A DNA stretch of 64,000 nucleotides from Psammoneis japonica (lineage: Eukaryota): assembly GCA_008632985.1 (NCBI GenBank), contig QPGO01000149.1, forward strand, positions 62,001-126,000, in the 5' to 3' direction. The position numbers were made by a program, and so were the translations under genes. This document shows, in pieces, positions 26,139 through 59,200 of the stretch. The notes under the pieces are model-generated. The model did not search any database. It was not told where the DNA came from and saw only the letters and a list, made by a program, of their open reading frames with translations. The first letter of the stretch is position 1, and each line of letters starts with the position of its first letter.

Positions 26139-26349
26139 GATGAACGATGTAGTCTGGTTTATGGTGGATGTTTGTGCTTGACGGTGTTGGCATCGCGTTG
26201 CTCATCGCGTGTTGAATGTTTTGGTTTTTCGAAATTTTTGGCTTGACGCAGAAATGACGTGTTCAACGAACTTTACGGATGGACGGACGGACGTGGTTGA
26301 GCGCAAGGAGGGCGGGAGCGACGACGGGGTGCCGTGTGGCGATGCCATT

Positions 26350-28560
26350 CACATTCTTGTGGTCTGCTTTGACAAGAGACAGGAAACAGGAGACAGTGCA
26401 GACACGACAAGAAGTTGAAACTGCAGCGAGAGACCATGGCAGCTGGCAGTGGTTGACCTCACAGGAAACAGCTTGCTGAAATCACCAACACAGGCGCACG
26501 GCATTGACTGGCCTGTCTTTGAGTCAACAGGAAGAGGAGGAGGAAAGCAGAAAGCCCATCTGTGCCTCTGAGATTTTTGAGCTGAGATGTGAGTTGAAAG
26601 TGCTTTCCCCGTGGTCACGAAAAAAATGAACTCCTGGCTTCTAGCTGTTGTTTTTCTTTCAATCTGCCGCCGCTGCCATGGCAGCCTGAGCTTGGTGGTG
26701 CTGTTGCCAACCAAAATGCAGCAAATCTGTGCATGAGACAAGAAAAAGGAGATGTGTTGCAACATCAGAGCTGCACAGTATGTTGTTGCATTGTTGAACC
26801 CAGCGGCTGTCATTTTTGGGCCAAGAAGCCCAAAAATGAAAGTGCGCCTCATGTGCGCTGCTGCTGATTGCATGCGTCAATGCTGGAAAGTTGGCTGGGC
26901 ACAAACAATTGCAGCGAGAAATGGTCTTCAAACAAGATTGACAATTGTGGGCCAATCTGCTGGCTCCTCTCTTTCTAGACAGCATCAAAGATGATGCCAT
27001 GGAAAGAGCACCCTCCAGCATGAAAAAAGCTGTCAGCACACTTGACAGAAGCCAGAATGTGGTGTCACACATCTGTGCTGTTGTCATTTTGAAAGATGTG
27101 GAGAGCTCGCCATTTTTGTTGTTGTTGACAACAACAACAGAGTTTCAGGCCTGGGCTTGTCTCCTTGTGTTTTTCCTTGAGTGAAAACTTTGCACAGCTG
27201 CTTGTTTCCACCCACGTTCCAGATTGTACAAGCCTTTGAATCATGTGCAACATGCGGCCACTGACAAGAGTTAATGTGTCACGGCGACGTGTTGCAGCCT
27301 TTAAATGTCACAAAGGGCGTGACAAAAATGACCTTTTGTCTGCATGCATGCTGCATTGTGAATTCACAGCGGAGTGGCACATCGCAACCACCAGGCAGGA
27401 GGCCAGGGGTTCGAAACCCTGAGTGGGAGTTGTCTGCAGCAACGTTGATCACTGTCGAACGCGTAAAACTCTGTGCAGTTCTGTATGTTCCTTCGTACGT
27501 ACCCACACTGTTCCGCCAAAACCGTGCAGTGTCAGTGCACGTTAGCAAAGAGCCGCACGGATGCGTGACACATGGGGAGGAGTGCAACATGCAGCCACTG
27601 ATGAGAGTTGGTGCATCACGGCGACGTGTCACAGCCTTTAAATGTCACAAAGGGCGTGACAAAAACAACCTTTTGTCTGCATGCATGCTGCACATGTTCA
27701 ATGAACATCATGCTGGCAGCAAATCACAGCAGCATTGAAAAGAGCTTCTTGAGTGGCTTGATGGTCTTGGTGTGATGCTCGTGCCACTTCTTGAAGTGCA
27801 GCAAAATGACCACATTTTTGGTCAGCTGATCTTTGTCACTCTGCAGTGCCTTTCATCTGCACAGTGCAGCAATCTTGTCCTTGGAAATGTTCTGGCAAGT
27901 CTCTCTCTCTCTGCTTTGCCAGCTCTTTTGCAGATTTGTTGCACACACCACACCAGGGCTTGCCAAAGTTCAACCCTGTGCTCCTGTCAGCAAATTTCAT
28001 GCCAGTGGAGCACTTTGCTGTTAAAAAAAGATGAAGCCGCCCCAGGCTTGACTGTGCAGCACTTTTCAATGCAAGAACAAGTTCTTGAATTGGCGCGCTT
28101 TCAGATCTGTTTTGTGCACCATTTCGCTCTCTTTGTCATTGCAACATCTTGGGCACCCAGTGTGCCTTGAGCACCCAATGCCCAAGAACATCACTGTCCC
28201 AATTTTGGTGTCATGCATGTTGTGAAAAACAGTGCAGACATTGTGAGCTGGTGCTGGTTGAAGAGCTCAGCCGCCCGCTTCAAATGATGAGTGAGAGAGC
28301 CAAACAGCGCACACCACACCTGGCTTGCCCTCTCCTGCTCAATCAGATTTAAGCCCAGCAACCTCCAGATGATTGTTTGGATGACATGGCATTTTTTGTG
28401 TGACACACACTTCCAACTCAGCTCTTTGCTGCTTGCCGCCAAAATCATGCCAGTCATCGTTGCACACTGTGCTGCTGCCACATCAGCAGCCAGCAGAAGC
28501 CTGGCTCTTTTCACCAATGCTGAGGACACTTGATTTTCTCTGCTGTTAATCCCCACTCTT
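26350..28560. other. CpG- and TpA-depleted degenerate block A
   Basis: By eye, CG and TA are nearly absent and TG/CA abundant; no intact gene; hosts the TRIM-like element. Boundaries approximate. Confidence 0.8.
27246..27692 (+). mobile_element. TRIM-like miniature LTR retroelement (447 bp)
   Basis: 110-bp direct repeats 27246-27355 and 27583-27692, each TG...CA with ~10-bp inverted ends (TGCAACATGC...GCATGCTGCA); polypurine tract GGGGAGGAG 27574-27582 abutting the 3' LTR; 4-bp flanking duplication CATG (27242-27245, 27693-27696). Confidence 0.8.
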
Positions 28561-28820
28561 TGAGCAGCTCCATAGAGCCTTTGCGGAGGCCCAACATTGC
28601 CGCCACAGCAGGGACTCTCGCCAAGAGCGCGTGGCCGCACCGCACTCGAGCGAGCCGTTTGCACAGTGTGACGTCATCCTCATTTTTTGATTGAAGTTGA
28701 GATGAGGCTCTCGGTTCGCCGCGCATGTTTCTTGGTCGGTTCTTGGCCATGCACCGTGCAAAGCGATGGAACCACATTTCATTTATGTCGTCCGTTGTTC
28801 CACGATCTACTTTTCAGACA

Positions 28821-30220: not shown

Positions 30221-30886
30221 ATGCCTTCTGTTTCGATCAACGTTTGGCTTTTCTTCTGCACCCTTGCTGTCGGGGCTGTATCGGCCCTCGAGGTTGGCGA
30301 CAACCTCTGTATCCAGGGATATGTCATGGATTATTACTGCATTGACAATGTTCGAATGATCGACAATGGCAAAAAGACCCTTGAAAAACCCTTCGACCAC
30401 TCTGTTCATTGCTTGGTGGACGTTTCTGATTGTTACAACTCGGCATTTGAAGTCCTGACTGATCCTGCAACAGACGGAGCGCTCTACACTCGTGGCTACC
30501 GACTCACTGAGGAATCTAAACAAGAAGTTATGTCTCTTGCTTTCAGTGTTGGGAGCTGCAGCAGATGCGTCAATGGATATGACAACAGCAAGCTCGCAAA
30601 TGGATTTCGAGCCGTCTTCAACGTTACGGTGGTCGACCTGAACGAAGATGACGACGACACCCCTCCCACTGTCGTGGTCCATAGTCAAGAATACCCCGAT
30701 CCGACGGATACGAATCCCTGCCTTACCGTCTTTGGCTTAGTTGAAGGTCAAGTTATGGGCAACGATCCGAACATCACGAATCCAGACGATGATGGCTCAG
30801 ACGACGACTCAGCTGCCGGTTGGATTGGGGTGAGCAGTTCGTTTGTCGCCACTTGTTTCATTGCACTAGCCGGTCTTTTGTTGTAA
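30221..30886 (+). CDS. Secreted/membrane-anchored Cys-rich protein, paralog 1 (intact)
   Basis: Signal peptide, domain ALEVGDNLCIQGYVMDYYCIDN...PFDHSVHCLVDV, hydrophobic C-terminus (GPI-like); homologous to 38273 and 41583. Confidence 0.85.
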   Translation: MPSVSINVWLFFCTLAVGAVSALEVGDNLCIQGYVMDYYCIDNVRMIDNGKKTLEKPFDHSVHCLVDVSDCYNSAFEVLTDPATDGALYTRGYRLTEESKQEVMSLAFSVGSCSRCVNGYDNSKLANGFRAVFNVTVVDLNEDDDDTPPTVVVHSQEYPDPTDTNPCLTVFGLVEGQVMGNDPNITNPDDDGSDDDSAAGWIGVSSSFVATCFIALAGLLL

Positions 30887-33800
30887 CGAAACAATAATAG
30901 AGAGTATGCACAACACCTCTAGAAAAGTAATGTGATGGGTCTGCAGTTTATCCAAGTTGACTTTGATTGGTCTTTTTCACGGTACCTGGTACCCTCTAGT
31001 TTATATCGTGTACAGCTGGGCATTGCTGTAGGGCCCTAGGTAGAATTATGGCTATGTACCGAGTGGAGTGTCAACTAAACAGCAGCTCTGAAGGGGTGAC
31101 AGGTGCCACTCAAAATCCCGGGATGGAACCCTGTGTGATTCGCAATGTCGGCCATTTCACACCAGAGCTCCACTTTTCCTCTGTTGCGACCACCACATGT
31201 TCCACTCTTCTTAACCTTGTTTCTATGAAAGCTGCTGAGCCCAAAGTGACCAACTTTTGTTTGTTGCACTTGAACTCTTCCATAGAAACCATGAAAAATT
31301 ATGAAAGACATTTGGAGTTGAAATGCTTGATGTCGCTGGTGCCATTGCCAATCACAGAAATGCAACAACATCCAAGGAATGTGCAAGCGCTTGGCCAAAG
31401 AGGACCTGCTGATGCTGCACCACTGCCACCAGTCACATGGTGGAGTGTGGGAGAAAAAGGTGCTTGAATTGTTCTTTTTGATCCTGAGCATCCCCATAAA
31501 TTCATGTGCACAATTGCTGGAAACAACCACTCGCTGTTGCACGAAAAACAGCACACAATGAGGTCTCTCTTGTGTTGTCAAGATCTGACAAGAACTGAAT
31601 GGCTCAGCATTGTCAATGCATCAAATGTCAACCATTGACTTGTTGGGGCACTTTTCCACTCTTTGTTTCTTTGCCATGAATGGCCCCAGGCTCTGCATGT
31701 TTTTTGCCTCTTTGCCTTGGTGAGGTTGCTCTTTGTTGGAATGTCTTTGTTTGTTTGCAGCTCAGATGCATGATTGGCTGCTTCATGTGGCTTACATCAC
31801 CATTGTTTTGAAGCTCTCTCTGGGAGGGCAAGCCTTTTCTTGGTTTTTAACTGATTTGGTGGCATCTTGACATTGTTGTGAGGAAACCCTGAGATCACAG
31901 CTCACCTGTGCCAGAGCATGACAGCAGATTTGCAGTTGGAAGTGCCCTGTTTCACACAACAAGAGGTGCAGCACAGCAGTCAAAATTTTCAACAGACAAA
32001 GTGGTGGACAAAAGAGGGAGGGCAGGCCTTTGAAATTGGCAAGAGACACAATGCCATTGTTGCAATCAGGTGAGATGCCGTCTGCTCTTGTCACCAAAAC
32101 ATGCTCCAACTCTTCTGTCACAAAGCAAGCAAATTTTGCTTTCTTGCCAACGAAACCTGTGGTGGTCCACCAGCAGAGTTGAGTGTTCAACATGAAAGAA
32201 CACATCTGAGCTGTTGACACATGTGCCATGTGCCTGTTCTTTGTGAAAAACCAGCCAATCTCTGTTCATGTGTGAAGTTGATTTTGTTGGGGGGGGGGTG
32301 GCTTGATTGGGTGAAAATTGCCACTGTGGAGGACAAAGTGTCCATTGAGCTCATGTGCCTCACATTTCAAAATCATTGGCAATTCAGGGCATTAGTGTGC
32401 AGCCTGGCTTGTGCTGTGGACAACTCTGTGGCAGTTGCCCAAGGAACTGGAGCCCACGCCAATTTGGAATGCCCACCGCCCCAGAGCAGGCTCTCTGTAA
32501 ATCCCCCAGATGATTGTCACATGTGCCCCTGCATTTGCGGCAGCTGTGCTGCCCTGCTTCCCAGAAGATGCCATGGTGTTGGAAACACCAGGTGAGGCCA
32601 CTAAGATGGTTGCCATGCTCAACAACATTCTGCAACAGTTCTTTGTGGTGATGATGCATGTGCCATGCTGCTGGCTGCAGTGTTGGGAGGCCCAGCACCA
32701 GCATCCTTTAAAAGCACCAGGGGTGCCAAAAAGGGTGCTGCTGAGGCTTGTGCCAATTCTTGGCCTGAAAGTGCTGTCTTGTTGTCAGTGTCAAATGACT
32801 GGCCTGCCAACAATGTGCCAGTTGCAAGTGTCATGCACTGCTCTTTGCACTGATTTTTCCAGTTGCAGCTCAGGCAGCACCTGTGAGATCTCCCTGGCTG
32901 CTGCTCCCTGGTTGTGATGACCCATTTCCCCACACACCCAATTTGCCATTGTGGCTAAAACTTTTGTGTCTGACTGGCTCTTGGGCTCACATCTTCCACA
33001 ATTTTTGTCTCAACCAAATGAGAAAAAAATGTGCACAACAAAAAAACCATTGTGATGGCCTTGTTTCTTTTGCCTTTGAAACTGCAATTTTGTCAGTGTC
33101 TTGTCATGCCAACAACTTTGCCTTTCTGGTGCAGGCAAAAATGTGTGGGCTGATCTTGCTGAAGTGAGTGAATGGGAAGAGTGGGCAATCTTGTGACTGC
33201 AATGGGTTTGATGCCATGCTGTGTGCTGCTGCAAGGAATGTTGCTTTCAAACCAAGGGGAAGTGAGCACAGGCAGCGCTGTCAAATCATTTTCTTTAACA
33301 AGAAGGCATCACAGCTGTCTCAAACAAAAGTGAGCAGCACACCCAAGAAGACCCAGCACAGACTCTCTCTCTCTCCCTCTCTCTCTCTTGGCAGCACAAA
33401 TGTGAGGGGAGTAAAAACTGTTTTCTGTTGATTGGTCTGCTCTGTGCCCATTCTTTTTCTCTTTTTTGCACATGGGAGAGCAGCTCACACACACCTCCAC
33501 CTCACTCTGCTGCTCTGCTGCTGTTGTTCATTGTGTTGTTGTGTTGCATGTTTTTTCCATTGCACTGCCAGGAATGCACTGCATGCCATGCCACCACAGT
33601 CCTTGAGAATGAACTGCACTGCACCCTTGTTGAGTTGTAGAGAATTGCCTCAATGTTGGTGTCAACTGGCACAAGCTTGAGGACATGTTGTTCCCAAAGA
33701 AATGCAGTTTGCGGACAACATGACCAAAGCAACAAACAGCACACCTGCTGCACAACTCCACTCTTGTGCTGGAGATTGCCCTGATTTGTTGGTCACCATG

Positions 33801-35599
33801 CATGGTGGGAGCTCTTTGAGGCTTGCCACAGAGAACATGATGCTCAAACTGCACCCCTCTCCCCATTGTCAAGAGCATTTCCATCTGATGGAGATTCTTT
33901 CTGAAACATGGGTCACCAGCCCAAAACCCATGCCAGGCTTTTTCCATGAAATGCTGCATGTGTGGGAGGATGGGGGTCATGTTTTCAGCAGGAACTCCTG
34001 TGTCACATTGAAGCCATGGGAAAGTTGGGTCATCTGGCCATGGCACAGCTGCTGCATTTGGTGATGGATGCAATGCCACAGCAGGTGCAGCATGTCTTCA
34101 CAAACAACTGTGCATGGTGGAAGAGCAGGGCGGCCAGAGAACCTTTGTGGCTGAACAAAGCAAAATGTGTGCAATGAAGACATCACACATGAGAAACAAT
34201 GACCAGAACAAATTTGCCAGCCAGCTTGGCCAGAGACCCTAATTTTCTGGTCAGAACATGGTTTTCCAGCTGGGATGTGCCAGTTTTCTGGCCACAATTT
34301 TGCTGGCAATTTTTTTGTGTTTTTCCACCACCACTTTCATGCAAGCAACTTCCATGGGAGAAGTGGCAACAAAGAAACCTGTGGCAAAATGCAAATGATC
34401 TTCACAGCATGTGCACGAAGTCACAAAAATGTTGTTGTCAAAGTGACCTCAGCTCTTTGTGAGGTCTCTGATGCAAGTGTTCAATTGGGTTTCTGGCCCA
34501 AAAATGCATGGCTGCTCTGCACAGTGCAGTGCAGCACAAGGATGCTGCAATGCTCACACAGCAGAAGAGCTGACTCAAACAGCTGCATCAGCATTGCATG
34601 ATCACTGACAGCTTTTCCAGTCACTGACTCAAATGCCACGGAAATTGTGTCGGACATGCCAGATTTTTCTGACATGATGCCTTTGACATCATTGCAAAAA
34701 TGTTGAAGCAAAGAGGAAAGCACAGGATGGCAGCACTTGTGCAACAAGTGTGTGCAACTGAGTTCTTTCTAATCACTTTTTGCAGCAGATCAACAACAAA
34801 TGCACATCAAAATGTTGCAAGGCAATGTGGTCAAAGCATCTTGAATGACACCCAAATGACACCCACTGGCATGATCACTTTGTGCTTCACAGGTGCATGC
34901 AAGACACCCAAACTCAGATGAATCATCAAGAAGGCAAGCTGTTTTGTGCACATGTTGAAACAGGGCTGCAACTTTGACAAATGCATGTCATTTGATGCTG
35001 AGAGAAGTTGGACAGCACACTGAGCAGAGATGGCTTGCCTTTCCCAGATGTTGACCAGGGTGTGGCTGAGCACACAAGGGGGTTTTCTGAAAGCAGTTTG
35101 GGCCCAGGGGAGAGCCTTCTGTTGTGGCACCCTGTGCTTGTAAAGAGCAAGAAGTGCAAAGGCGCACACCCATGACAATCAATTGTCTTGGCTGTGTGAA
35201 ATTGGCTGTTGAGGAATTCAACAAGAAAGTGGAAACTTGAGGTGGCTTGAGCAAGAGAGTGGCAGCACATCATGATGCAAACAAGTGTGCATGGAAAACA
35301 TGGGCAAGAAAAAGAAAAGGAAAAAATGACAAGCATCCTTGGCAACAGAAAAGTCATCCACTGGTGGTGCTGGTGCTGATCATGGCAGTTTGCATGCCTG
35401 CAATGTCACTCTTTCAAATGATGAGTTGACTGCCATTGTTTTGGCAACTTCTGGGATGACACAACCACGCAAATCAAAACCTTTTCAAAATGCAGATGAT
35501 GGAGAGGATGCAAGAAAACAATCAAATTGATGGTTGCGTTTGCTTTTCACAATGGATGGAAACAAGTGGCTGACAAAAGAGACAATTCTCTGACAACCT

Positions 35600-37900
35600 T
35601 TGCATGCCAAACAATGCCCATGTCATTTGATTGATTTGCTGGCATCTTGTGATTGTTCTTGACTGTGCATTGAAGAGGTCACCAAGAAGGAATGCTGCAT
35701 GGCTTTGCTGCTGTCAGCTTGCAATTAATGACCTCAGCTTTGCAGATTTCAACTTCACAAAAAGTTGTCATGCCGCAATGGCACGGCATCACATCTTGAG
35801 AATTTCAACTCCTTTTCACATCCCCCAACCAACCAAGAGGAAGTGGGAGATCCACCAACATTTGAGGCCCATCCAAAGATGAAGCAGAAATCATTGAGTT
35901 TGCAATGTCAAAACTTTCTTGTCCTTCAACCGAGGTTGCCACAGACCATTTGCATGAAACACTGGTGGCACTGGAGTTCTCATGGAGAAAGAAGAGTGGC
36001 TGTTGTGAGAATGAGGAGGCCAAAAACCCATGGATTGCCTCTCTTCCAGCACAGTTGCCAACTGGGTGTGCCCTTTTGGTTTCTGGCATGGACAAAACAA
36101 AAACATGCATTGTGTGTGTTGATGATCATGAACACACCAACAATGCAAGGCTGAGGAATGAGAGAAGGGGCCCCTGACAGTTGACAAAAGAAGAGCAAAC
36201 CTTGTGTTGGACAGCTTCCACAAAAGCAACTGCAATGGACAATGGACCTGGTTTAAGCTGAAGCTCTCCCAACAAAAATGGGACACAAATGCCCAGCAGC
36301 AAAGTCTTTGCTGAACATCACACAGACACTGTTGTTGACCCTGCACATCCAAGCCTTGTGCCCAAGCTGTCTGCACAATTTGAAGGAAGCAAGTGTGTGC
36401 ACAAGGGTCCCAACACAAAGCAGTTCATGACACTTGGACAGGACAATGCTGTTTTCAAGCAGTGCTTGCCAAACACAAGCAGCTGGACAGGTCCAAAAGG
36501 TGAGAGGGTGCTGCCACCCAAAGATGATGCAGAGGATGCAATGCAGTTTCTGTTCCAGTGTCTCAAGGCTGGCCTTGTTTCAGATGAAGACATTTCTGAA
36601 GAGTGGCTCAAAGAGATGAATGACTGGAGCAGGCAAATGCTGCACTGCTGCTGCTGCTGCAAGAGAAGTGTTTGGTGAGAAGCAACATGAGCCAGCCTTG
36701 AAAAAGAGTCCATTTCTGCACAAGATCATGCATGGAACAAACAATGGCAGATTCTGGAACTGTGATTTCATGTTGGTTCAATTGGAATGTTGTGTGTGAA
36801 GGACTGCTTGAAAATGCTGCGTTTCTCACAACTTGAGCACCACCACTTCCCATTTGATCATTCTTGCAGGCACAACAAGCAGAGAGAGTGGATGGACCAA
36901 CCTGTCACAAGCACATTGTGAATGCAGGTGTTGTCAGCAGTTAGAGCAAGATGCATCATGTTGAGATCTTTCAGACAGAGGGGGGCTTTCTCCAGGTCCC
37001 ACCATGCTCAGGCACAGCTGGCATGTCATCTGCAGGGCACAAGCACAAACAATGACACTCAGCAAGGATGGCTGGGGATGACCACAATGGATGATGACAA
37101 GACAACAAGATGCCAATAAATGTGATGCACCTGTCAAGGATCAATCCAAAACTCAAAAGCTCCTGTGTGATGAAATTTCTCTGATGAGCTTTTTCAAAAA
37201 ATGTCAAGACAACATCAGGGAGGCAAGAAGAAGGGTGGGCTGATTGATGTGGTAAAGAGCAACAATGCACCTTTCAAAGAAACCACTCAAAAGGTGAAGC
37301 ATGGATGGGTCAACAAACTGAGAGGATCAAAGCAAATTTGGTGTTGCAAGCAAGAAGGTGGGCGGGCTGACCCAGACAACCCTGGAAAATGCACTGCAGA
37401 TGCTGGCACAAAGAGGGCAAAGACAGAGAGATTGACAAGCCAACATCTCTCCTTTGCTTGATGTCCACTTGCAATGATTTTATCAACTGAAAGATGTTGT
37501 TGCAAATGACAGGTCACAAAATGGGGCAAGACAATTGACAGAGTGGCTGCCCACGAGCATTGCCCAGAAGCGGCAGGGGAGGGCAGCGTTGAACACCCTT
37601 GGGGACTCACAAAGCAGCACTGTGATTTGCAGCCTTCATCAAGGAAGAAAAGGGGAAACAAAACTTTAGAGAATTCAATGTGAGCAAAGAAAGTGCTTGT
37701 GGCTGAAAGGGCGTGTGCTGCAACCGGCTTTTTTGACAAGCTCCTGACAAGAACACATTTGCACTCACATGTGGCTCTTTCACAGCTCACATCTCTTGAG
37801 GTCAAGGAGAGAGCCATCTCTCCAGGGACCATTGAAAAGCTTGTCAAGAAGTTCAAAATGCACCGCAGTGCAATTGACTTTGACAAGGGTTTCATTGTGA
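35600..37900 (+). mobile_element. Degenerate DDE transposase, Tc1/mariner-IS630-like
   Basis: Ordered motifs across frameshifts: GQDNAVFKQ...SWTGPKGERVLPPKDD (36436-36530), SPFLHKIMHGTNNGRFWN, PFDHSCRHNKQRE (~36850), HGWVNKLRG, HCPEAAGEGSVEHPWG (~37560), IEKLVKKFKMHRSAIDFDKGF (37831-37893). These resemble the QDE / FDHSCGH / HCELAGEGIEYSWG transposase pattern. TIRs not found; 5' end uncertain. Confidence 0.7.
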
Positions 37901-38272
37901 GGACGCTTGCGTGCAAACAGGCAATTTTTTGTAGGGTAAAAAAGGTTTGTGCAGCTGCTGGCACACTGCATGAATGCCATCAATGATGTTGCTGACAATT
38001 TTACTTCGGCTTTTTGCATGGCTAACAAATTTTCTAACCACTGACGTGGGATTGACACTGTGTGCTGTACGACGTCGTCATTGCTCAATTTTTGATTTCA
38101 TTCATTTGCCAATCTTGAAATCGCTTGTTTCGCTGCATGTGGTTGTTCTGAGTTCTGAAGTGCAAGAGGTCCTTTCCATCCCCTTTGCATGGCATGTGCT
38201 GCACACTTGCCCCAGTCTCTTTGATGACAGAGCTCAGAAGTTTGGCGAGGGCTGCAGTGACTGACGAGGACC

Positions 38273-39133
38273 ATGTTCATCAGCAACAAGAAGAAATTGT
38301 GGTTCTCCCTCTTTGCCATTGCAGCCACTTCGACCTCTGCTCTTGAAGTTGGTGACAACCTGTGTGTTCAAGGTTGTGTTGTGGACCATTGCTACATTGA
38401 CAATGGTCCAATGATTGACAATGGAAAAATGACTCTTGAAAAGCCCTTTGACCATTCGGTGCATTGCTTGGTGGATGTGTCAGTTTGTTGCAGCAGCCCC
38501 TTTGAAGCATTGACAGATCCTGCAACAGATGGAGCTTTGTGCACTCATGGCCACTGTCTGGATGATGATTCCCAACAAGAGATGATTCAACTTGCTAAAA
38601 GTGTTGGAAGCTGTCACGAATGTGACAATGGATGCAACAGTTCCAAGCTGGATGCGCGGTTCCGAGCCATTGTGAAAGTCACGGTTCTAGATTTGAACGA
38701 GAACGATGATGATGCTCCTCCTCTTGTGCGAATGAATGAACAACAAGATGCCAGTTATCTTGGTGATGATCCATGCCAATCAGAGTTTGACATGGAGGAA
38801 GGCCCGCAAGTTTCTGATCCAACAACTTCTGCACCTGCCCCCAAACTGACTCCTCCTCCAACACAAAGTCCAACAATGGGTTCCACACCCCAGCCTGTGC
38901 CTGGCCCACCTCCTTCACCAACCACCAGCCCATCCACTAGACCTGTGACCACCATGCCCTCCTCAGCATCTCCAACACCAACTGTGATGCCCTCCTCAGC
39001 ATCTCCAACACCAACCACAATGCCAACAATGCAAAGTGCAGTTCTGACAGACCCGCCATCCATGGCCACCTCACAGCCAATCTTTTGGACATCAGTCATC
39101 CTCTCCACTGCACTCTTCACTTTGATGTTGCAA
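38273..39133 (+). pseudogene. Hypermutated paralog of the 41583/30221 surface-protein gene
   Basis: Colinear with 41583-42866 including flanks; 7 of 8 Tyr in the N-terminal domain changed to Cys/His, several CGN Arg to His/Gln/Cys, stop TAA->CAA at 39131-39133; internal deletions in the P/T/S stalk. Confidence 0.85.
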
Positions 39134-41582
39134 CAGGTTGCATCGCTTGCATTGGAACTGTTGGTTTACACCCACAGATGTTTTGTGCTTTTCCTGTGCA
39201 TCATTTTATTCATTCTGCTTCTGCCTTGGACTTCTTCACATTCAAGACATGCTGCCATGCGAATCAAATGCTCAAAGTCTTCAATCCCCCACCAAACGGT
39301 TTCTGCTGTCGCTGTTCATCTTTCCTTTCCTGACATTCAATCAATGACTTTTTTGTGGCCAAATCTAGCAGATGAAGCAACATGCACACAGAAAAAATCT
39401 GTGTGGTTGCTGACAGAGTGTGACACAGAGACAACATGAGCAAAAGGAGCTGCAAGGAGCAAATGACCTCCTCCTCCCACATGAAATTGCCTGCTGACAA
39501 TTCTGGTGCATTCCTGTGGCTCCAGCATGGGTGTGCAAACTGCCTGGCTCTGCAGGTGTGGCTGAGCCTTTCCAATGGCAGCACATTTTACAATCTTTTT
39601 CAGAGTCGGCATTCAGAAAGAGGTGGTCCTCCAGCTGGGAATCATCATGCAAGCAGGGAAAGCTGATTGCTGTCACAAGACAGCTCACTTTGAAGGACAG
39701 TTGTGTTGCTCACAGCACAGTGCAATGATGAGAAATGCCAAATCACTTGAGAGAGTGTGTGATGTGTGGCCCAACTCAAGTGTCAGCATGAGAGACTTGG
39801 CCAGTCTCCATGCTCCAGAGGACCTCACATTGACCATTGGGTGATGGCATCCACATTGCTGGCTGCACAACATGGTGGTGGGTCCATCAACAGTGGGTGC
39901 CACAAGATTTGGAGATTTCCAAGCAAACAAGACAAGAAAAAGATTGCAAGAGAGGAGAGCACTTCTTGGGCATTGACAAGAAATCTAAGAACTCCAAAAT
40001 GTGCTGTGCTGTGTGCAGCCTCATTTCAGTTGAAGAAAAAAAAGCAGCCCAGAGCGCTCACTCTAGAACCATGCAGAGTGGCTGCATGTGAATCTCTTCC
40101 AGCAAAGATGCTGGAAATGGCAATTCAGGAAAAATGAATGCACCACACATGTTGGTTTTGCATGTGCAAAAGTTGTCATTGTCTGGGTTTTGTGACAGCC
40201 AAAAGAACAACCAGAGATGTGCTGTGATGGCATGCCAACAAGAAGAGAAGATCCTGGATCCCCAGGAGCTTTTGATGGCTTGCAAGAGAAAGCTCTCCAT
40301 GTGAAAAGGAGAGAGAACACAGGACACCAGTTGTCAGCTGAAAGATGATCCATCGAAACCAATGTGCATTGTGCAACACTTTCTGCAGCTGCAATTTGTG
40401 CATGCAATCTGCCTGCTGTCTGCACAAAACAAATGTGCACACAAAGTTCTGACAGCAAACACATGCTTTTTTAGCCAGACTGGAGGCTTGCCAAAGGGCT
40501 TTTGTGCGCCCCATTTCCTTTGCACTGGCTGCACTTGCAAAACACAACACAGCAACTGCAAAACAACAAGTTTGACCATGTCAACCAACCAAAAGACAAC
40601 CCCACCTTCTTGTGCAGCACCTGGAAAGAGGCCACCTTTTTAAATGATGTGACAATCTGGCTGCCACAGCACACAAGTTCATCGTGGTTCGCAGTGTCAC
40701 ACCCAGCTGCCCCAGCACCGTTGTTCATTGTTGTGCTTTCATTTTGTTTGTGTTGTGCAATGTGTCATTGTCATTGTTGTTGTTGTCATTGTTTTTGGCT
40801 TGTGCAGGGAAGACACAGGTCATGAGTGTTGAGAAATGATCCTCACCAGTCTGGCAAAGAGGGCCAGAGAAGCAAAGCAGAAAACAGACTGTGCGGCTGA
40901 GGGACAGCAAGCCATGTGGCTCCCCAGAGTGGTGCATTGTGCCAAGGGATGCTGTGGGAGAGCAACCAAGTGGACATGTGCATGACAAGGTGTGGCTTTT
41001 TCAGTGTGAGGTCACTCTCCATTCTTTGCCATGAGCTTGGCGCCATGGCAGTGTCGTTGACGGTTGGTGTGTTGTCTCACTTGGCTCCAAGGCATCTGTT
41101 GGTGTGTTGTCACTTGGCTCCAAGGCATCTTTTGTTGTGAGAGCTGAGCAGTGTTGGATGGCAAAAGGACTGCTAAGTGTATCGTAGGTCACATCACTGA
41201 CAACGAAAGAGATGGTGTCTGCATTGCCTCCAACATGTCTTAGCGGATGTGTCATGGTGCCATTCCACCGGCACAGCAGACACAGGATCTCCGTCAACAC
41301 GCGGTTCGAATGTGTCCTATTACTGATGTCCGTAAGTACGGAAATTAGGCCAATTTATATGTTGGTGGATATTATTGTATAAAAAAGCCTTTCAGGGTGG
41401 GAATGTGCTCACGCATTTTCGCATTTTCCGCTCAAGCAATCTTTCGTCTTTTCGCAGGCCATGGGATCGTTCTCAAGCCCGAAAGGAGGCTGTTCTCCTG
41501 TTTATCGCATAGCGTGTGCTGCACACGTAGTCTCTTTGACGACGGAGCACAGAAGTTTGGCGAGAGATATCTAACGAGGACC

Positions 41583-42866
41583 ATGTTCACCAGCAGCATG
41601 TTGTGGCTCTCCCTCTTTGCCATTGCAGCCGCTTCGATCTCTGCTCTTGAAGTCGGTGACAACCTCTGCATTCAAGGCTATGTTATGGATTACTACTGTA
41701 TTAACAATGTTCAAATGATTGATAATGGGAAAACGACTCTTGAAAAGCCCTTTGACCATTCGGTACATTGCTTGGTCGACGTTTCCCTTTGCTACAACAC
41801 ACCATTTGAAATACTGACGGATCCTGCATCAGACGGAGCTTTGTACACTCGTGGCTACCGTCTGGATGATGATTCCCAGCAAGACATGATTCGACTTGCC
41901 AAAAGTGTCGGAAGCTGCCGCGAATGCGACAATGGATACGATAGTTCCAAGCTGGAAGCTGGTTTCCGCGCCGTTATGAAAGTCACGGTTCTAGATTTGA
42001 ACGAGAACGATGATGATGCCCCTCCTCTTGTACGAGTGAATGAACAAAGAGATGCTAGTTATCTTGGTGATGATCCATGCCGATCAGAATTTGACATGGA
42101 GGAAGGCCCGCAAGTTTCTGACCCAACAACTTCTGCGCCCACTAGGAATCCTACACCAGCTCCGACTACCTCCGAACCGACTCCTCAGCCATCTACCAAG
42201 ACACCAACTGTAAGTCCAGTCACTAGTCTTCCCACCACAAGCTCAACACTAGGTCCTACACTCCAAGCAACAGAAGATCCGGCACCGGTTCCAACGCCTC
42301 AACCCTCGCATTCTCCCACAGTCCAACCATCACAAAGTCCAACGATGGGTTCTACACCCCAGCCTGTGCCATTCCCAACTCGTTCACCAACCACCAGCCC
42401 ATCCACCAGTCCGGTGACCACCATGCCGTCCACAGCACCTCCACCACCAACTATAATACCAACGGTACAAAATCCCGTTCTGACAGACCCGCCGTCCATG
42501 GCCACCTTGCCACCAACTAACAGCCCATCCACTACGAGTCCAGGGACGGACAGGCCATCCACGGCAACTCTAATGCCAACTATGGCCAATACGCCACAGA
42601 GTCCCGTCACGGTGAGCCCCACCGTAGTTCCAACCATGTTGACAATGACGGCGACTCCAACGTCCACGCCAACATCAAACTCGCCAACTTCTCCGACGCA
42701 AGTCGTTTCCGAACCGCCAAGTATGGTGACTGCGTCACCTACTAGCTTTCGTCTACCAACATCAAGCTTAACGGCGGAGAATACATCTGGTGGTGCGCGG
42801 GTGGCGGGAGGTTTCTTGTGGGCATCAGTCGTCCTCTCCACTCTACTTTTTACTTTGATGTTGTAA
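41583..42866 (+). CDS. Secreted/membrane-anchored Cys-rich protein with mucin-like P/T/S stalk, paralog 2 (intact)
   Basis: ATG 41583 with signal peptide, same N-terminal domain as 30221, PTxxPT repeats, hydrophobic C-terminus. Confidence 0.88.
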   Translation: MFTSSMLWLSLFAIAAASISALEVGDNLCIQGYVMDYYCINNVQMIDNGKTTLEKPFDHSVHCLVDVSLCYNTPFEILTDPASDGALYTRGYRLDDDSQQDMIRLAKSVGSCRECDNGYDSSKLEAGFRAVMKVTVLDLNENDDDAPPLVRVNEQRDASYLGDDPCRSEFDMEEGPQVSDPTTSAPTRNPTPAPTTSEPTPQPSTKTPTVSPVTSLPTTSSTLGPTLQATEDPAPVPTPQPSHSPTVQPSQSPTMGSTPQPVPFPTRSPTTSPSTSPVTTMPSTAPPPPTIIPTVQNPVLTDPPSMATLPPTNSPSTTSPGTDRPSTATLMPTMANTPQSPVTVSPTVVPTMLTMTATPTSTPTSNSPTSPTQVVSEPPSMVTASPTSFRLPTSSLTAENTSGGARVAGGFLWASVVLSTLLFTLML

Positions 42867-43593
42867 CAGAGCAAGATGAGTTTAGGTCCGTCCTATTGTA
42901 AAGGAAAGTTGTATTGCTTGTAATATGGATTCTTGGTTTACGTTTATACTTTCGCTTCAAATGTATCATTTGATTCCTTCCGCCTTGGTCTTGACACTTT
43001 TTTCGATGTTTTTTCAGTCTTGTTCATTTTCAAGGTGCTCGATCTAGAGAGGAGCTATACATCCACCCACTTACCACGGACGGTACCGATTCTCTCTATC
43101 ACTCAAAGGCTCTACGACTAGAGAAGAGCTATACCGTACTGTTACCGGTGAAGAAAGAGGTCACGCATTGTGGATAGAAGCTGCATTTGCCGGTTGCGTG
43201 TCATCAACAATAAGCAAGACTAAACATGAACGATCGATGTGAGCAATCGGTCAATCAATCGTGTGAAATGCCACGCGATATCTCTTAGCTTTGTCTCTAT
43301 TGCCATATTATATAAAGGTTTTAGAAAGGGCGATTGGGAAAGACACATTTCAGACATCCAAAGGACATGAAATGACTGGAAAGGAACACAACATCTTACA
43401 TAAACAAATAATAATAAACTAATATCTTATATGTATGCAGGACAGCAAAGTGTCAATGTTCGTCGAGTTCGCATTCATTCGTGATCTTGGTCGTGCTTTT
43501 TCATATTTTGTTTTTGTCAACACCCTCAAAAAAGCAAAAGCACAGCCCAAACTCAAGAAAGACGACAAAACCTAGATATCAATAGACACAACG

Positions 43594-56449: not shown

Positions 56450-59200
56450 CTGGCACTTGCATGCATGATGAACACGCACTGCAAGGGAAGGAACTGATCA
56501 AGATTCGATTTCCCACTGCTGCTTGTGTGCGTTCACTCCTCTTGTTGCTTTGCACAATGGATGGCAGCTGAAATGCCTGACAACATGCGTGTGATCCAAA
56601 GGGCTTGTGGCATTGCACAGCAAGTCCAGTGCAAATGTGGTGTTGCTTTGAATGAAGGGGGGCTCCTGATGCTTGCTGATGTGTCGGAGAGATGGAATCT
56701 GATGCTGATGTGACAGAGATGGCAAAGTGTCATTTCTCACACTAATGTTGAAGGACATGTGAACTTGGGAATGGCTCAGATGAATGCACTCAAGCTTTGG
56801 TGGAGTGGATTTGTGACAAGATGCAGAGGTGCAGGGGGCAAAAATTGATTGCAGCTGCTGAGGTGATGCCCCGCAGAAGCTCACAAGCAAAGATTGTTGA
56901 AAAGGAGACAGAGTGGGCATCGAGACAAAGGTCAGCTCTCTGGCCAAGTTTGACCCCATTTGCTGTGGCACGCATGAGAGGAGTGCTTTCTTGAACTTGC
57001 TGTCACAGAAGATTGGAGCAATGAAAGCCTCCATTGTGTTGCCCATGCCAAACAAGCACCTGAGGAGTTTGAAGATGACAAAGAGCATCGCGTGCATCAG
57101 CCACCACTTCAGGGCACTGTGTTTTGCAAAAACAACTGTTGTGCACCACACCACATGCTGAAAGACTTCTTTTTCAACACCCTTCCTTGGATGGGCTTGG
57201 ATTTCCTGTTTTGATGCATTGGAAAATGGCTGCAAAGCTTTTTGAACTTTGGCCAACAACCATTGCAATGGTCAAGGAGAACTGAACAAGAGGACAGCTG
57301 TGGCTGCAAGTGTCGTCAACTCAAAACCATTCATTGTCAGAACAAAATGGTTTGTCTGCTCAAAGCCATGTTAGCTGAGTTGACAAAACCACTCATTGCT
57401 CTCAACAAGGGCCTGGACTTGTGCTCCTTGGAACATCAAAAGTTGATGCTTTGTTGAATTGCATTGAAACAACCAGTGCAGAGCTTGTGGCCTCAAAGAC
57501 TGTCCTCAGCCAAACCTTCCTGACCAATTTCTCTAGAGCAGCAGGTGCACATTTCTCAGAAGCTCAAGTTTCTCATTGTTTGCACTGCTCAGTTTGAAGC
57601 ACAGCATTTTGCCAAGCACAACAAAATGTCAAACCTGTTGAGAGGTGGACCATCAGGTGGACAAGGCCATGGTTGTGACAGATGGGGACCTGGTGGACAA
57701 GGACATGGTGGTGGTGGCGGCAGAGGTTGTGCTCATGGCACATTTTGTTTGCGCCAAACTGTCATCAACAAAGTGGGTGCATCCAACCCAACCCATTTGT
57801 TTTTGTTTGAGAAGTGTGGTCATTTGCATGTGCCCTGCCTTCTTCAAGCATGCAAGTGCATGAGTGGCAGAGGTGCTGGAGGAGGTCATGGTCACAGAGG
57901 AGGACATGATGCAGGATGTGGTTGCAATGTTTCCAAAGTTGAGCCACTTGAGTTAAAGCCACCAGAGCAATGTGGAGCTTGTGCTTGCTTGTTCTTGATG
58001 GTTTGGGGTGCCAGCATCTGTTCTTGTGATGCGTGTGCATTGAGTGCCTCCTGTGCCATGCATTCCAGCATTGCAGCTGCTGTCAGTGCAGCCCCACCCA
58101 GCCACTTCCATTTCAAGAAATGTCAGTGTTGTGACAAAGCTCAGCATTTGTGCTGCATTTGTTGTTTCAACTGCAAATCAAGCTTTGACTGAGCCTGAAC
58201 ACTGTGCAACAAACAAGAGTGTGGTGTGCCCATGTGGGTGCATGTTGTGCAGGCAGGTTGGTGCACTCACATTGTGACAATCCATCAAGGTGGCAGTCAA
58301 ACACACTCCCAGCAAGATGAGTGTGCCACCGGGAGTGACCATGGGCATTTGAGCTCAAGCACTTGCTTGAAGAAGGCGCACATCATTGAAGTCCAAAGCA
58401 TGATTCTGTGTCCACAGAGCATCACAGAAAGAGGGAGAGGTTTGTTTTTAAGACCTGCATGCCATCGGCCCAATGGCCCAGCATCAGACTCCTTCCCACT
58501 GATGTGCTCAAGGAAGGATGGATCACACACCAAGCAGGCTGCACTGCAGCTTTTTGTGATGTTGAAACTTCTGAAGGGACTCTGTGGACTTCTCAAGCAG
58601 TTGATGAATGCTTTCATGAGAAACCACAAGCCAGTTTGCTCAAGCATGGATGAATGCCATTGGCCACAGACCCTTGTCTGCACTTCAAGGAAGGTGTGGT
58701 GTGCACTGTGCAAGTTGACGACACAGTGTTCACTCACAGGAGCGTGTGCGTTTGCATCTGAGGAGAAGACTCGCAAGCCAGGAGTCACACTGACAATGAA
58801 CACATGAACATGCACCTCAACCCAGGGATGAAGGAGAAGTTGGGAACTCCATTTCTACCCTCCAGCCTGGTCTGATCAACAAGGGAAGGTCCTGCGCACT
58901 GCCCATGTGGATGATGCAATGGCATCTCTGCCCCAGTCAGCTCTGCCTGAGCCTGTTTGTGCCAACACGGACAGCCTGCCCTTCTGCAAACCCTGCAATT
59001 ATCATTCCGTAGTTGGAACATTGATGCACTTGACATTTGCCATAATTTCTAGAGAATGACTTTGAGCAAACGTCTGTCTACCTTTGTGTTGTTGCATGCC
59101 AACCTCCAAGAGCTTTGTTGCTTGCATTGCAAGCTCTGCATTGTCATTCGACTGTGCTGTCAAAAGAAGAATCAATCAAGAGAGCTCTGGACTCCAACGC
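56450..59200 (+). mobile_element. Degenerate Copia-like LTR retrotransposon fragment (gag/protease), CpG/TpA-depleted block C
   Basis: GWAWISCFDALENGCKAF*TLANNHCNGQGELNKRTAVA (57189-57305) resembles diatom Copia gag (..GR.A...HYNG.GELNKR); GGQGHG repeats are consistent with mutated GGRGRG; AHVGACCAGR (~58230) resembles the protease motif DSHADTCCAG. No LTR, RT or integrase recognised. Confidence 0.6.

Follow-up and report, generated by a model that had tools for sequence, protein, structure and literature searches.

Three blocks with sharp boundaries, 2-10 kb in size, within the window (the whole 64,000-nt stretch of Psammoneis japonica contig QPGO01000149.1 that was analyzed) have lost nearly all of their TpA and CpG dinucleotides, and these blocks are the affected unit. 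The initial annotation had assigned the effect to a single hypermutated paralog (copy A), which merely lies inside one of the blocks; its relatives B and C are equally duplicated and are untouched. The observation itself is confirmed and proves larger in extent than first reported, whereas its interpretation is partly supported. On balance, we consider it probable that the three blocks are ordinary diatom DNA whose sequence was altered in place by a pair of context-specific transition processes confined to them, TpA editing and methyl-CpG decay.

Table 1. Coordinates of the blocks, repeats and paralogs within the window.
Feature	Position	Strand	Description
Block 1	26350..28550		TpA- and CpG-depleted DNA
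High-copy repeat, class unknown	27240..27700		Inserted in block 1, between 112-nt direct repeats
112-nt direct repeats	27245-27356 and 27582-27693		Border the repeat in block 1
Paralog C	30221..30886	+	Intact, 221-aa ORF; serves as outgroup
Block 2	31300..41175		9.9 kb almost without TpA and CpG; contains copy A
Paralog A	38187..39140	+	Hypermutated copy of B
Patch inside copy A	38660..38810	+	Retains TpA/CpG; compared for site survival and identity to B
Paralog B	41460..42870	+	Intact, CDS 41583-42866
Block 3	56500..58960		TpA- and CpG-depleted DNA

TpA and CpG are depleted in three discrete blocks

The observed/expected (o/e) ratios in the blocks are 0.04-0.10 for TpA and 0.06-0.39 for CpG, the corresponding values elsewhere in the window being 0.56 and 0.94. 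Gaps of at least 80 nt that are free of both TA and CG number 59, the longest being 566 nt, and all of them fall within the three blocks (9 in block 1, 40 in block 2, and 10 in block 3), whereas the remaining ~48 kb has none and a median TA/CG gap of 8 nt. Block 1 (26400-28500) retains 6.7 TA per kb (o/e 0.10) and 23.3 CG per kb (o/e 0.39), with 224 TG+CA per kb. Block 2 (31300-41150, 9,851 nt) retains 41 TA and 67 CG (o/e 0.06 and 0.12), with 232 TG+CA per kb, and its core (31500-37500) reaches o/e values of 0.045 for TA and 0.064 for CG; its left edge is graded (31.09-31.4 kb) and its right edge is sharp. Block 3 (56500-58950, 2,451 nt) retains 6 TA and 21 CG (o/e 0.04 and 0.14), with 236 TG+CA per kb. 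In every block, the TA o/e is no higher than the CG o/e. The gain of TG+CA in the blocks equals the loss of TA+CG: the background contains per kb 38 TA, 54 CG, and 144 TG+CA, which add up to 236, and an in silico conversion of background TA and CG yields a CA+TG frequency of 0.236 vs. 0.231 observed in the blocks.

A search of block 2 for Pfam domains in all frames found none, and a 257-aa ORF in block 3 has zero relatives among 1.84 billion representative proteins. Viral or transposon domains were likewise sought in the blocks and not found, and the genome-defense role proposed in the initial annotation is not supported. Most of the block DNA has no second copy within the window. Block 1 has an expressed gene on either side, a LON-domain gene (-) and a TLDc gene (+), both with the 5' end towards it; this is an odd location for silent chromatin and counts against the explanation favored below. 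The best named relatives of SecA are all from diatoms, which agrees with a diatom source of the DNA. Among 36 metagenome loci around diatom-type SecA genes (~220 kb), we found zero such blocks, and depletion of this kind may be uncommon or restricted to certain lineages.

Copy A reveals the direction and context of the changes

Copy A, which includes 86 nt 5' of the ATG at 38273, aligns to intact B over 649 nt (38187-38835 vs. 41507-42139) with 84% identity, rising to 93% when the same alignment is recoded as purine/pyrimidine, while C (30281-30666) is alignable to both and polarizes the changes. B begins 285 nt to the right of the block 2 edge and has an X2 contig spanning 41437-43121, C is covered by a contig from this same RNA-like run, and the N-terminal domain of B has homologues in diatoms, some of which are fused to DOMON or cytochrome b561. 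The 24-nt sequence pair quoted in the initial annotation is found in both copies, and the coding changes it listed are real: B has 8 Tyr codons, of which 7 encode Cys or His in A and Tyr in C, and the stop codon TAA has become CAA, extending the ORF of A to 39439. Its lone counter-example, a TAC in A that is TGY in both B and C, is also genuine.

From B to A, 28 of 30 TpA sites changed, 16 to TG and 12 to CA with no other outcome. At CpG, 32 of 44 sites changed (16 to CA, 9 to TG, and 7 to other dinucleotides) and 12 were kept, which places 25/44 in the TG/CA class. TA to CG and CG to TA exchanges were both absent, with one hit per site. In the reverse direction, 3 of the 5 TpA of A and 2 of its 14 CpG differ in B. 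These changes are directional, limited to TpA and CpG, and strand-symmetric, as had been claimed. With C as the outgroup, the A branch carries 36 changes (9 at TpA and 9 at CpG, all transitions, plus 18 elsewhere) and the B branch carries 17, of which 1 is at TpA and 0 at CpG; the 9 TpA and 9 CpG transitions are the entire A-branch excess. The per-site rates on the A branch are 6/11 for the A of TpA and 3/12 for its T, vs. 4/73 for other A and 5/76 for other T, with just 2 A>G among the 73 non-TpA sites. By rough arithmetic from these counts, the rate of A>G/T>C changes is ~50-fold higher at TpA than elsewhere and the CpG excess over other C>T is ~13-fold. As the initial annotation held, the changes call for a TpA-specific A:T>G:C process beside CpG decay.

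One patch inside copy A kept 8/14 of its TA/CG sites, as compared with 6/60 in the rest of A (Fisher p = 3.5e-4), and is 92.7% identical to B, vs. 84-85% elsewhere. Gene conversion from B over a short tract, or local protection, may account for it.

Surviving sites, the block 1 repeat, and recent hits

The surviving TpA sites are mainly Y-TA-R: 31 are Y-TA-R, 18 are mixed, and 3 are R-TA-Y, whereas the background counts are 285, 986, and 561 (chi-square p = 2e-16). For all YpR steps taken together, the purine/pyrimidine context is unchanged. The Y-TA-R excess could also reflect the way in which new TpA are formed instead of a preference of the enzyme. Within copy A, a pyrimidine is the 3' neighbor of 19/28 changed A and of 15/28 unchanged A; this trend is not significant, and its direction matches the Y-TA-R excess. 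Among surviving CpG, GCGC accounts for 14% vs. 4.5% of background CpG, and survival is best in G+C-rich flanks.

The high-copy repeat in block 1 has summed X1 word depths of 9,479 and 59,858 (two bins, 26702-27903), as compared with ~55-65 for single-copy DNA. Searches for tRNA or other RNA families in it (ARAGORN, Rfam) found none. With o/e values of 0.30 for TA and 0.79 for CG, the repeat is younger and only partly converted. TpA loss runs ahead of CpG loss, since the o/e ratios of this young repeat and the survivors in copy A (2/30 TpA vs. 12/44 CpG) both follow that order. Transitions are the sole differences between the two 112-nt direct repeats, which are 100% identical in purine/pyrimidine code.

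The changes reside in the DNA and are not a base-calling artefact, because the TG and CA outcomes (25 and 28, in 32 runs vs. 27.4 +/- 3.6 expected) are interspersed and strand-symmetric and because X1 contigs reproduce the blocks at single-copy depth; run X1 (~60x) may be the assembly data of the window itself and is thus not an independent sample. The X1 k-mer contigs cover block 2 at a depth of 62-70 and its flanks at 54-61, and they differ from the window at 6 positions in 5,497 nt, 0 in 1,022, 2 in 852, and 1 in 3,219. Of the 6 X1 differences within block 2, 4 coincide with remaining TA/CG sites, which make up 1.3% of its positions (p = 4e-7). The 112-nt direct repeats differ by 4 adjacent TG<->CA doubles among 11-12 differences, vs. 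0/97, 0/18, 0/15, and 0/6 for other repeat pairs of the window and 3/71 for the 45.3/46.1-kb pair. The same TG<->CA double separates the window from X1 at 28117/8 and 28154/5, and at 27536/7 the window has TG while about half of the summed repeat depth has CA. These doubles between repeat copies and between haplotypes show that the hits are repeated and recent.

Proposed explanation and its alternatives

Under the explanation that we favor, the blocks would consist of non-coding DNA of anonymous character together with a single dead gene duplicate and a single high-copy repeat. The faster process would convert TpA to TpG or CpA through a single A:T>G:C change per site on a random strand, after which the site would cease to be a target; most likely this would be enzymatic DNA editing at 5'-TA-3', such as adenine deamination, whose product hypoxanthine is read as G. 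The slower process would convert CpG to TpG/CpA, most likely because 5-methylcytosine is deaminated in DNA that is methylated. The involvement of an enzyme, the chromatin and methylation state of the blocks, and a possible role in defense are features that we infer. In tRNA, the adenosine deaminases TadA and ADAT2/3 target A34, whose 5' neighbor U33 is near-invariant, so that 5'-UA-3' is a native target of this enzyme family.

A single DNA deaminase of dual specificity, acting on A in TpA and on C in CpG, would strip the amino group from the sole amino-bearing base per strand of a self-complementary YpR step, so that both steps end as TpG/CpA. It would match the loss of both dinucleotides from the same blocks at the same edges, as well as the shared product, one hit per site, and the lack of TA<->CG exchange. 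We nevertheless regard it as unlikely, as the kinetics are unequal, with TpA always further gone (most clearly in the young repeat), and the ~13-fold CpG excess on the A branch falls inside the known range for plain 5mC decay. ADAT2 enzymes are said to act on DNA as deaminases of A as well as of C, as cited in the available text of a preprint on Bigelowiella natans, yet the TpA process described there comes without a C>T excess (10.64898/2026.01.13.699255).

Slightly less likely still is oxidation of the thymine of 5'-TA-3' by a TET/JBP-type dioxygenase to 5-hydroxymethyl- or 5-formyluracil, which would mispair with G and yield T>C; enzymes of this class could attack the 5-methylcytosine of CpG as well. 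Kinetoplastids hydroxylate thymine at TpA-containing repeats, the 5hmU of dinoflagellates prefers TpA, and 5-formyluracil is mutagenic towards T>C. Furthermore, A>G on one strand is indistinguishable from T>C on the other in sequence data, and the survival pattern can equally be read as an R-T-A preference. However, the T of TpG would be expected to be a target too, yet TG accumulates, and a literature search for 5-hydroxymethyluracil with TpA and transposable elements returned nothing relevant.

We give a somewhat smaller chance to passive decay, in which no editing enzyme acts and symmetric heritable marks (5mC at CpG and N6-methyladenine at TpA) simply mutate faster. Hits confined to self-complementary dinucleotides are a hallmark of maintenance-type marks, and the loss is graded with apparent age. 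Against this, symmetric 6mA in eukaryotes occurs, to our knowledge, at ApT and not TpA, the blocks show no depletion of ApT (0.056 vs. 0.062 in the background), and the ~50-fold TpA rate is high for a passive effect. The B. natans process, moreover, is active in some lines only, according to the text available (10.64898/2026.01.13.699255).

The Pol eta-like error-prone repair at WA motifs suggested in the initial annotation is very improbable. Pol eta A>G errors do occur preferentially at TA within WA, but ApA shows no excess and the motif is therefore a misfit (AA to AG/GA at 6/56 vs. 28/30 for TA, and 2/73 A>G outside TpA on the A branch), while near-complete conversion at one hit per site over 10 kb is unlike patchy repair synthesis. 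Modified bases can give systematic transitions in some sequencing chemistries. Such consensus errors, or retro-copies of RNA hyper-edited by an ADAR-type enzyme with its preference for a 5' U (discussed in the available text of 10.64898/2026.01.13.699255), are the least credible source of the blocks, given full single-copy depth in X1, TG and CA that alternate within a few nucleotides unlike a strand-majority consensus or one-strand RNA editing, the indels and 18 ordinary substitutions of copy A, and the inclusion of promoter-side DNA in blocks of up to 10 kb.

Comparison with known systems

ADAR, AID/APOBEC, and TadA/ADAT2-3 share with the blocks a transition-only, context-dependent mode of editing, and for ADAR and TadA/ADAT the edited A is preceded by U, as is generally known and as the available text of 10.64898/2026.01.13.699255 also has it. 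ADAR, whose substrate is dsRNA, differs in that it also edits ApA and works on RNA, and AID/APOBEC, which acts on ssDNA, differs in that APOBEC contexts are TC or WRC rather than CG.

Fungal RIP likewise inactivates gene copies through transition hypermutation that is regional and near-saturating, and diatoms have DNMT4 enzymes related to fungal RID whose function is given as unknown in the part of the source available (PMC9998398). As the initial annotation rightly stated, the effect at TpA is the opposite: RIP creates TpA from CpA and lowers G+C, whereas the diatom blocks destroy TpA and their G+C stays at 0.47-0.49. RIP also strikes all duplicate copies, whereas in the present case neither B nor C is damaged and most of the block DNA is without a copy in the window. 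Methyl-CpG decay shares the strand-symmetric, regional change from CpG into TpG/CpA, and CG methylation of diatom transposons depends on DNMT5a, according to the available part of PMC9998398. It gives no account of the TpA loss, which is itself faster and more complete, and methylation of the blocks would have to be presumed.

The closest likeness is to B. natans, whose mutation-accumulation lines exhibit TpA-only A:T>G:C hypermutation of integrated viral DNA (10.64898/2026.01.13.699255, 2026 preprint). As far as the available text of the preprint goes, 230/231 mutations in two integrated viral regions were A>G or T>C, with TpA as the context throughout; a term search of it returned neither CpG nor diatoms. 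Our own literature searches for TpA hypermutation in diatoms found nothing, and the earlier description of the process as undescribed no longer holds for the TpA process as such. B. natans belongs to the Rhizaria, whereas the present case is a stramenopile diatom. Its targets, again per the available text, are viral or transposon-like, namely the inserts of a giant virus (186 kb) and of a virophage (25 kb), where depletion is only mild (Rho TpA 0.45) or TpA is even enriched, whereas the diatom blocks yielded no viral or transposon domain, contain a duplicate of a host gene, span 2-10 kb, and are saturated (o/e 0.04-0.10). C>T is not raised in B. natans, while CpG is also erased in the diatom blocks, and given these differences in target and in C>T, it is the signature that suggests kinship. 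The rate was measured directly in B. natans, whereas the diatom case is built on sequence comparison. Both nonetheless involve TpA-only A:T>G:C changes that yield TpG or CpA depending on the strand in discrete regions, and the long-term trace described for B. natans consists of reduced TpA, raised CpA+TpG, clustered windows, and genes mostly without annotation (10.64898/2026.01.13.699255, in the text available). By this signature, the diatom blocks appear to be the long-term trace of a TA-targeted hypermutation that has been reported once before, in an unrelated alga.

Loss of TpA and CpG from one of three paralogs

The initial annotation had paired a mutated gene copy at 38273 with an intact one at 41583 and a third at 30221 (copies A, B, and C), and self-BLAST confirmed this arrangement: A (38187-38835) matches B (41507-42139) with 84% identity over 649 nt, while C (30281-30666) matches B with 75% and A with 71% identity. 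When the alignment was recoded as purines and pyrimidines, the identity of A and B rose from 84% to 93% over 704 nt, so the differences between them are mostly transitions. In ungapped columns of the alignment, copy A retains 2 of the 30 TpA of copy B; of the 28 that changed, 16 became TG and the other 12 CA. Of the 44 CpG of B, copy A retains 12, and the 32 changed sites read CA (16), TG (9), or another dinucleotide (7). No exchange of TA for CG or of CG for TA separates the two copies. In the reverse direction, copy A has just 5 TpA, 3 of which differ in B, and 14 CpG, 2 of which differ. The consequences previously noted for the reading frame were all found, as was the 24-nt example pair, which occurs as quoted in both copies: all but 1 of the 8 Tyr codons in B correspond to Cys or His codons in A, and C has Tyr at each of these 7 positions; the TAA stop of B reads CAA in A; and the lone counter-example, a TGY codon in B and C that is TAC in A, is real.

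With C as the outgroup, changes were polarised over the region aligned in all three copies. The A branch carries 36 changes: 9 at TpA, 9 at CpG, and 18 elsewhere. Every change at the two dinucleotides is a transition, with C>T accounting for 4 and G>A for 5 of those at CpG. The B branch carries 17 changes, with 1 at TpA and 0 at CpG; the excess on the A branch is thus confined to these two dinucleotides. In contexts other than TpA, A>G and T>C changes affect 4 of 149 sites on this branch, and C and G sites that are not in CpG show no rise in C>T and G>A changes (6 of 120 sites). By rough arithmetic from these counts, A>G and T>C changes are ~50-fold more frequent at TpA than in other contexts, while the corresponding excess at CpG is ~13-fold, which is in the ordinary range for methylated CpG. 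A strand-symmetric A>G change at TpA beside CpG loss, as first proposed, is accordingly what we observed, with TG and CA outcomes interspersed. Copy A also contains a 150-nt patch in which 8 of 14 TA/CG sites survive, versus 6 of 60 elsewhere in the copy; with an identity to B of 92.7%, this patch probably arose by gene conversion over a short tract from the intact neighbor.

TpA and CpG are depleted together in three discrete blocks

The paralog hypermutation described at the outset is a real change, but a 500-nt composition table and the spacing of TA/CG sites show that copy A is a passenger in the second of three affected blocks. All 59 gaps of at least 80 nt free of TA and CG (maximum 566 nt) lie within the blocks, distributed 9, 40, and 10 among blocks 1, 2, and 3, whereas the remaining ~48 kb has none and a median TA/CG gap of 8 nt. 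The TG+CA density of the blocks alone is close to the background sum of TA, CG, and TG+CA, which is 236/kb. Likewise, in silico conversion of TA and CG in the background sequence yielded a CA+TG frequency of 0.236, compared to 0.231 observed in the blocks, and the other dinucleotides agreed with the simulation within ~0.01, GpC excepted. GpC is raised in the blocks (0.075 versus 0.058 expected after conversion) and TpC/GpA are somewhat low, deviations that lie outside what the TA/CG conversion model explains. No homology between blocks was detected within the window in either ACGT or purine/pyrimidine code.

Composition of the blocks and of the rest of the window (o/e, observed/expected)
Region	TA/kb	CG/kb	TG+CA/kb	TA o/e	CG o/e
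Background	38.0	54.1	144.1	0.56	0.94
Block 1	6.7	23.3	224.2	0.10	0.39
Block 2	4.2	6.8	231.8	0.06	0.12
Block 2 core				0.045	0.064
Block 3	2.4	8.6	235.8	0.04	0.14

Block edges resolve within ~100-300 nt. The right edge of block 2 is sharp and its left edge graded; copy B starts 285 nt beyond the former and copy C ends ~200-400 nt before the latter, while block 1 is flanked by the 5' ends of two genes, both covered by an RNA-like sequencing run. At three block edges beside gene 5' ends, there are TpA-less stretches that still hold 17-19 CpG. These are only suggestive of a TpA process extending beyond the CpG loss, as the background itself has TA-free gaps of 150-213 nt.

Positions of features in the window
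Feature	Position	Strand	Remark
Block 1	~26.35-28.55 kb		TpA and CpG near-absent
Block 2	~31.3-41.175 kb		TpA and CpG near-absent
Block 2 core	31500-37500		
Block 3	~56.5-58.96 kb		TpA and CpG near-absent
Copy A	38187-39140	+	ATG at 38273
Copy A patch	38660-38810	+	TA/CG partly kept
Copy B	41583-42866	+	coding sequence
Copy C	30221-30886	+	
High-copy repeat	~27240-27700		in block 1
RNA-like contig	27362-27587		226 nt, on the high-copy repeat
Edge stretches	26274-26642, 28573-28784, 56294-56743		TpA-less
Lower-identity DNA contigs	34.8-38.1 kb		
Dispersed repeats	45343-45646, 46090-46393		outside the blocks
257-aa ORF	56501-57271	-	
230-aa ORF	37290-37979	-	
Plastid-type SecA	51819-54447	-	ORFs 51819-53549 and 53329-54447
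Intron of TLDc-domain gene	29287-29374		spliced, GT..AG
In-frame tandem repeats	12.9-15.4 kb, 19.6-20.4 kb		in long ORFs

The depleted sequence is present in accurate reads

If the changes were base-calling artefacts, they should fail to appear in accurate reads, which was not the case. In the sole DNA sequencing run found, 97% of sampled words were present, and word depth was 62-70 over block 2, compared to 54-61 over flanking genes. The k-mer contigs of this run that cover block 2 differed from the window at 6 of 5,497 nt, 0 of 1,022, 2 of 852, and 1 of 3,219. Thus, the block sequence is supported by accurate reads at the full depth of single-copy DNA, although it should be noted that this run may be the assembly source and is therefore a non-independent sample. 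Misread modified bases would set the two strands in conflict over TG versus CA, such that a consensus would carry runs of a single outcome. Copy A does not show this: its 53 TA/CG>TG/CA events (25 TG and 28 CA) form 32 runs, compared to 27.4 +/- 3.6 expected, and the two outcomes are balanced across whole blocks (246/225, 1182/1101, and 311/267). Copy A also carries in-frame indels besides its 18 ordinary substitutions. An artefact is consequently close to excluded.

TpA is lost ahead of CpG and survives mainly as Y-TA-R

Depletion of TpA exceeds that of CpG throughout. The survivors in copy A are 2 of 30 TpA and 12 of 44 CpG; the young high-copy repeat in block 1 has a TA o/e of 0.30 and a CG o/e of 0.79; and the same order holds in every block, with convergence only in the block 2 core. 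Surviving CpG favor GCGC (14% versus 4.5% of background CpG; p = 8e-5), and surviving TpA comprise 31 Y-TA-R, 18 mixed, and 3 R-TA-Y sites, versus background counts of 285, 986, and 561 (p = 2e-16), whereas pyrimidine-purine (YpR) steps as a whole have similar purine/pyrimidine surroundings inside the blocks and in the background. On the purine strand, conversion appears to have been faster at TAT and TAC than at TAG and TAA. A flank preference of the same direction in copy A alone was not significant.

Signs of repeated and recent conversion

The repeat in block 1 reaches summed depths of 9,479 and 59,858 in the two bins covering 26702-27903, compared to ~60 for single-copy sequence. Two 112-nt direct repeats flank this element, 337 nt apart. 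They are 100% identical in purine/pyrimidine code, and their 11-12 differences are all transitions, 8 of which form four adjacent TG<->CA doubles, the outcome expected where a single ancestral TA or CG has been converted separately in each copy. Such doubles were found at 0 of 97, 0 of 18, 0 of 15, and 0 of 6 differences in other repeat pairs of the window, 3 times among the 71 differences of the dispersed repeats at 45.3 and 46.1 kb, and once among 96 between copies B and C. A DNA contig also differs from the window by a double at 28117/8 and at 28154/5. Within the repeat, about half of the summed depth has CA at 27536/7 where the window has TG, and TA persists in 31% and 9% of the depth at 27546 and 27556, where the window has CA. 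Differences between DNA contigs and the window likewise concentrate at unconverted sites: 4 of 6 in block 2 lie at remaining TA/CG, which make up 1.3% of its positions (p = 4e-7), and 4 of 8 in the left part of block 1 lie at such sites, which make up 5.3% of positions there. Moreover, ordinary transitions at the abundant TG and CA should regenerate TA and CG, so from their near absence in the block 2 core we infer that conversion is ongoing.

The two dispersed repeats outside the blocks are 76% identical, or 88% in purine/pyrimidine code, and 17 of their 71 differences are TA/CG in one copy versus TG/CA in the other. TG+CA is also mildly elevated over 45.5-47.5 kb, at 79-87 per 500 nt versus ~72. 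The process seen in the blocks may be acting weakly on these repeats, or may have only begun there.

Contents of the blocks and their surroundings

The window carries a eukaryotic RPS4e and other nuclear genes along with a plastid-type SecA, whose named best relatives are all diatoms (68-76% identity). The SecA gene is divided between two overlapping ORFs, for which a frame change or an intron is the probable reason; several of its database relatives are likewise split. The family of copies A, B, and C has a diatom extracellular-type domain followed by a Pro/Thr-rich tract; as this is a diatom family, copy A is host DNA. In other diatoms, the N-terminal Cys-containing domain shared by copy B and its relatives is sometimes fused to DOMON (PF03351) or cytochrome b561 (PF03188), which hints at a cell-surface role in redox or iron handling. 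Elsewhere, long ORFs lacking a Pfam match hold tandem repeats that keep the reading frame (periods of 75, 186, 213, and ~261-264 nt) and are predicted to encode repetitive proteins.

Pfam searches found nothing above cut-off among the 119 stop-to-stop ORFs of at least 70 aa and nothing in the six frames of block 2 with stops as X, and no Rfam family was found in the blocks. Neither of the two long block ORFs had a relative (the 257-aa ORF was compared to 1.84 billion representative proteins), and we estimate that both are about as long as expected by chance from the loss of TAA and TAG. At 34.8-38.1 kb, there are extra lower-identity DNA contigs with many joints. We also considered the high-copy repeat as a tRNA-derived SINE, given a motif that we take to resemble a B-box; ARAGORN and Rfam found no tRNA even at E <= 10.

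The second run was judged to be RNA-like from its GT..AG joint at 29287-29374, where a contig skips 86 nt as a spliced intron of the TLDc-domain gene, and from its coverage of genes only. One contig from this run lies on the high-copy repeat at a depth of 162. None was found on block 2 or copy A, although an uncovered region is not necessarily silent.

Interpretation and significance

These sequence data are best read as the product of DNA editing specific to TpA, like that reported for integrated viral DNA in Bigelowiella natans (10.64898/2026.01.13.699255), acting on top of methyl-CpG decay and confined to particular non-coding, repeat-bearing blocks. Together, both processes would yield DNA virtually free of self-complementary YpR dinucleotides. 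As for the chemistry, which like the targeting signal and any defence function we infer, adenine deamination or thymine oxidation by one enzyme or two could be responsible. A much broader scenario, which we consider improbable, is that chromatin-targeted editing that erases self-complementary YpR is old and widespread in SAR algae (a diatom and a chlorarachniophyte), being saturated and active here on both host DNA and repeats, with one TadA/ADAT2-like deaminase perhaps editing the A of TpA and the C of CpG, as a RIP-like silencing system of opposite TpA chemistry.

To our knowledge, the B. natans preprint, from 2026 and on one chlorarachniophyte, is the sole report of TpA-specific nuclear hypermutation (10.64898/2026.01.13.699255). 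A saturated trace in a diatom would mean that this is not one species' peculiarity and may be common to distant algal lineages. A comparison of genomes that have such blocks with others that lack them could shorten the list of candidate enzymes, and diatoms offer a testing ground, since some have knock-out tools, methylomes, and chromatin maps. Annotation of algal repeats, transposons, and viral inserts will miss such DNA because Tyr, CGN-Arg, and TAA/TAG codons are lost and similarity falls below thresholds, whereas purine/pyrimidine recoding restores homology, as it did for copies A and B. The coupled CpG loss, the sharp edges beside expressed genes, and the survival of Y-TA-R place new constraints on any mechanism.

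Comparison with known processes

The CpG arm resembles methyl-CpG decay, being a strand-symmetric change of CpG to TpG or CpA. In Phaeodactylum, CG methylation of transposons is known to be carried out by DNMT5a; diatom DNMT4, kin to the fungal RIP enzyme RID, is without known function (PMC9998398). For the TpA arm, the initial annotation had suggested error-prone repair by a Pol eta-like polymerase with a WA hotspot. Both TA and AA should then be hot, yet AA changed to AG or GA at 6 of 56 sites versus 28 of 30 for TA, and we have dropped this suggestion. ADAR-type RNA hyper-editing concentrates A>G changes on a single strand of each molecule and has a non-absolute 5' neighbor preference (U>A>C>G); the interspersed TG and CA outcomes and the lack of an ApA excess differ from this pattern. 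Fungal RIP fits poorly in both chemistry and copy logic. It changes C to T mainly at CpA, thereby creating TpA and lowering G+C, and the blocks do the opposite at TpA, as had been stated: they hold 2.4-6.7 TpA per kb compared to 38 in the background, CA is increased, and G+C is kept (0.47-0.49 versus 0.48 in the background). RIP also mutates all duplicate copies, whereas here B and C are intact and the blocks share no homology within the window. AID/APOBEC enzymes mismatch in context.

The original suggestion of an undescribed process held in part. Our searches of the literature on RIP, hypermutation, TpA/CpG, and 5-hydroxymethyluracil found no description of the pattern in diatoms, and 36 metagenome loci with a diatom-type SecA (~220 kb, many of ~3 kb) contained no 400-nt window with TA+CG <= 8, although these loci make a weak test. 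However, the TpA arm matches the signature in the B. natans preprint. There, two integrated viral regions in mutation-accumulation lines mutated at ~6e-7 per site per generation, ~1000-fold over background; of 231 mutations, 230 were A>G or T>C, which fell exclusively on TpA and in some lines only; and an ADAT2-like DNA adenosine deaminase was proposed as a defence (10.64898/2026.01.13.699255). As in B. natans, TpA here goes to TG or CA only, all 9 polarised TpA changes are transitions, and the process is confined to discrete regions. The B. natans targets are of viral or transposon origin. Here, the blocks are without recognisable foreign genes and a host gene copy is hit, yet block 1 holds a very high-copy repeat and 34.8-38.1 kb attracts extra DNA contigs. 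The preprint mentions neither CpG nor diatoms and indicates that G:C>A:T changes were not raised (10.64898/2026.01.13.699255), whereas CpG is lost here, with an o/e of 0.06-0.39 and 25 of 44 sites turned to TG or CA in copy A. Compared to B. natans, the process in Psammoneis japonica occurs in another lineage, is saturated, and is coupled to CpG loss.
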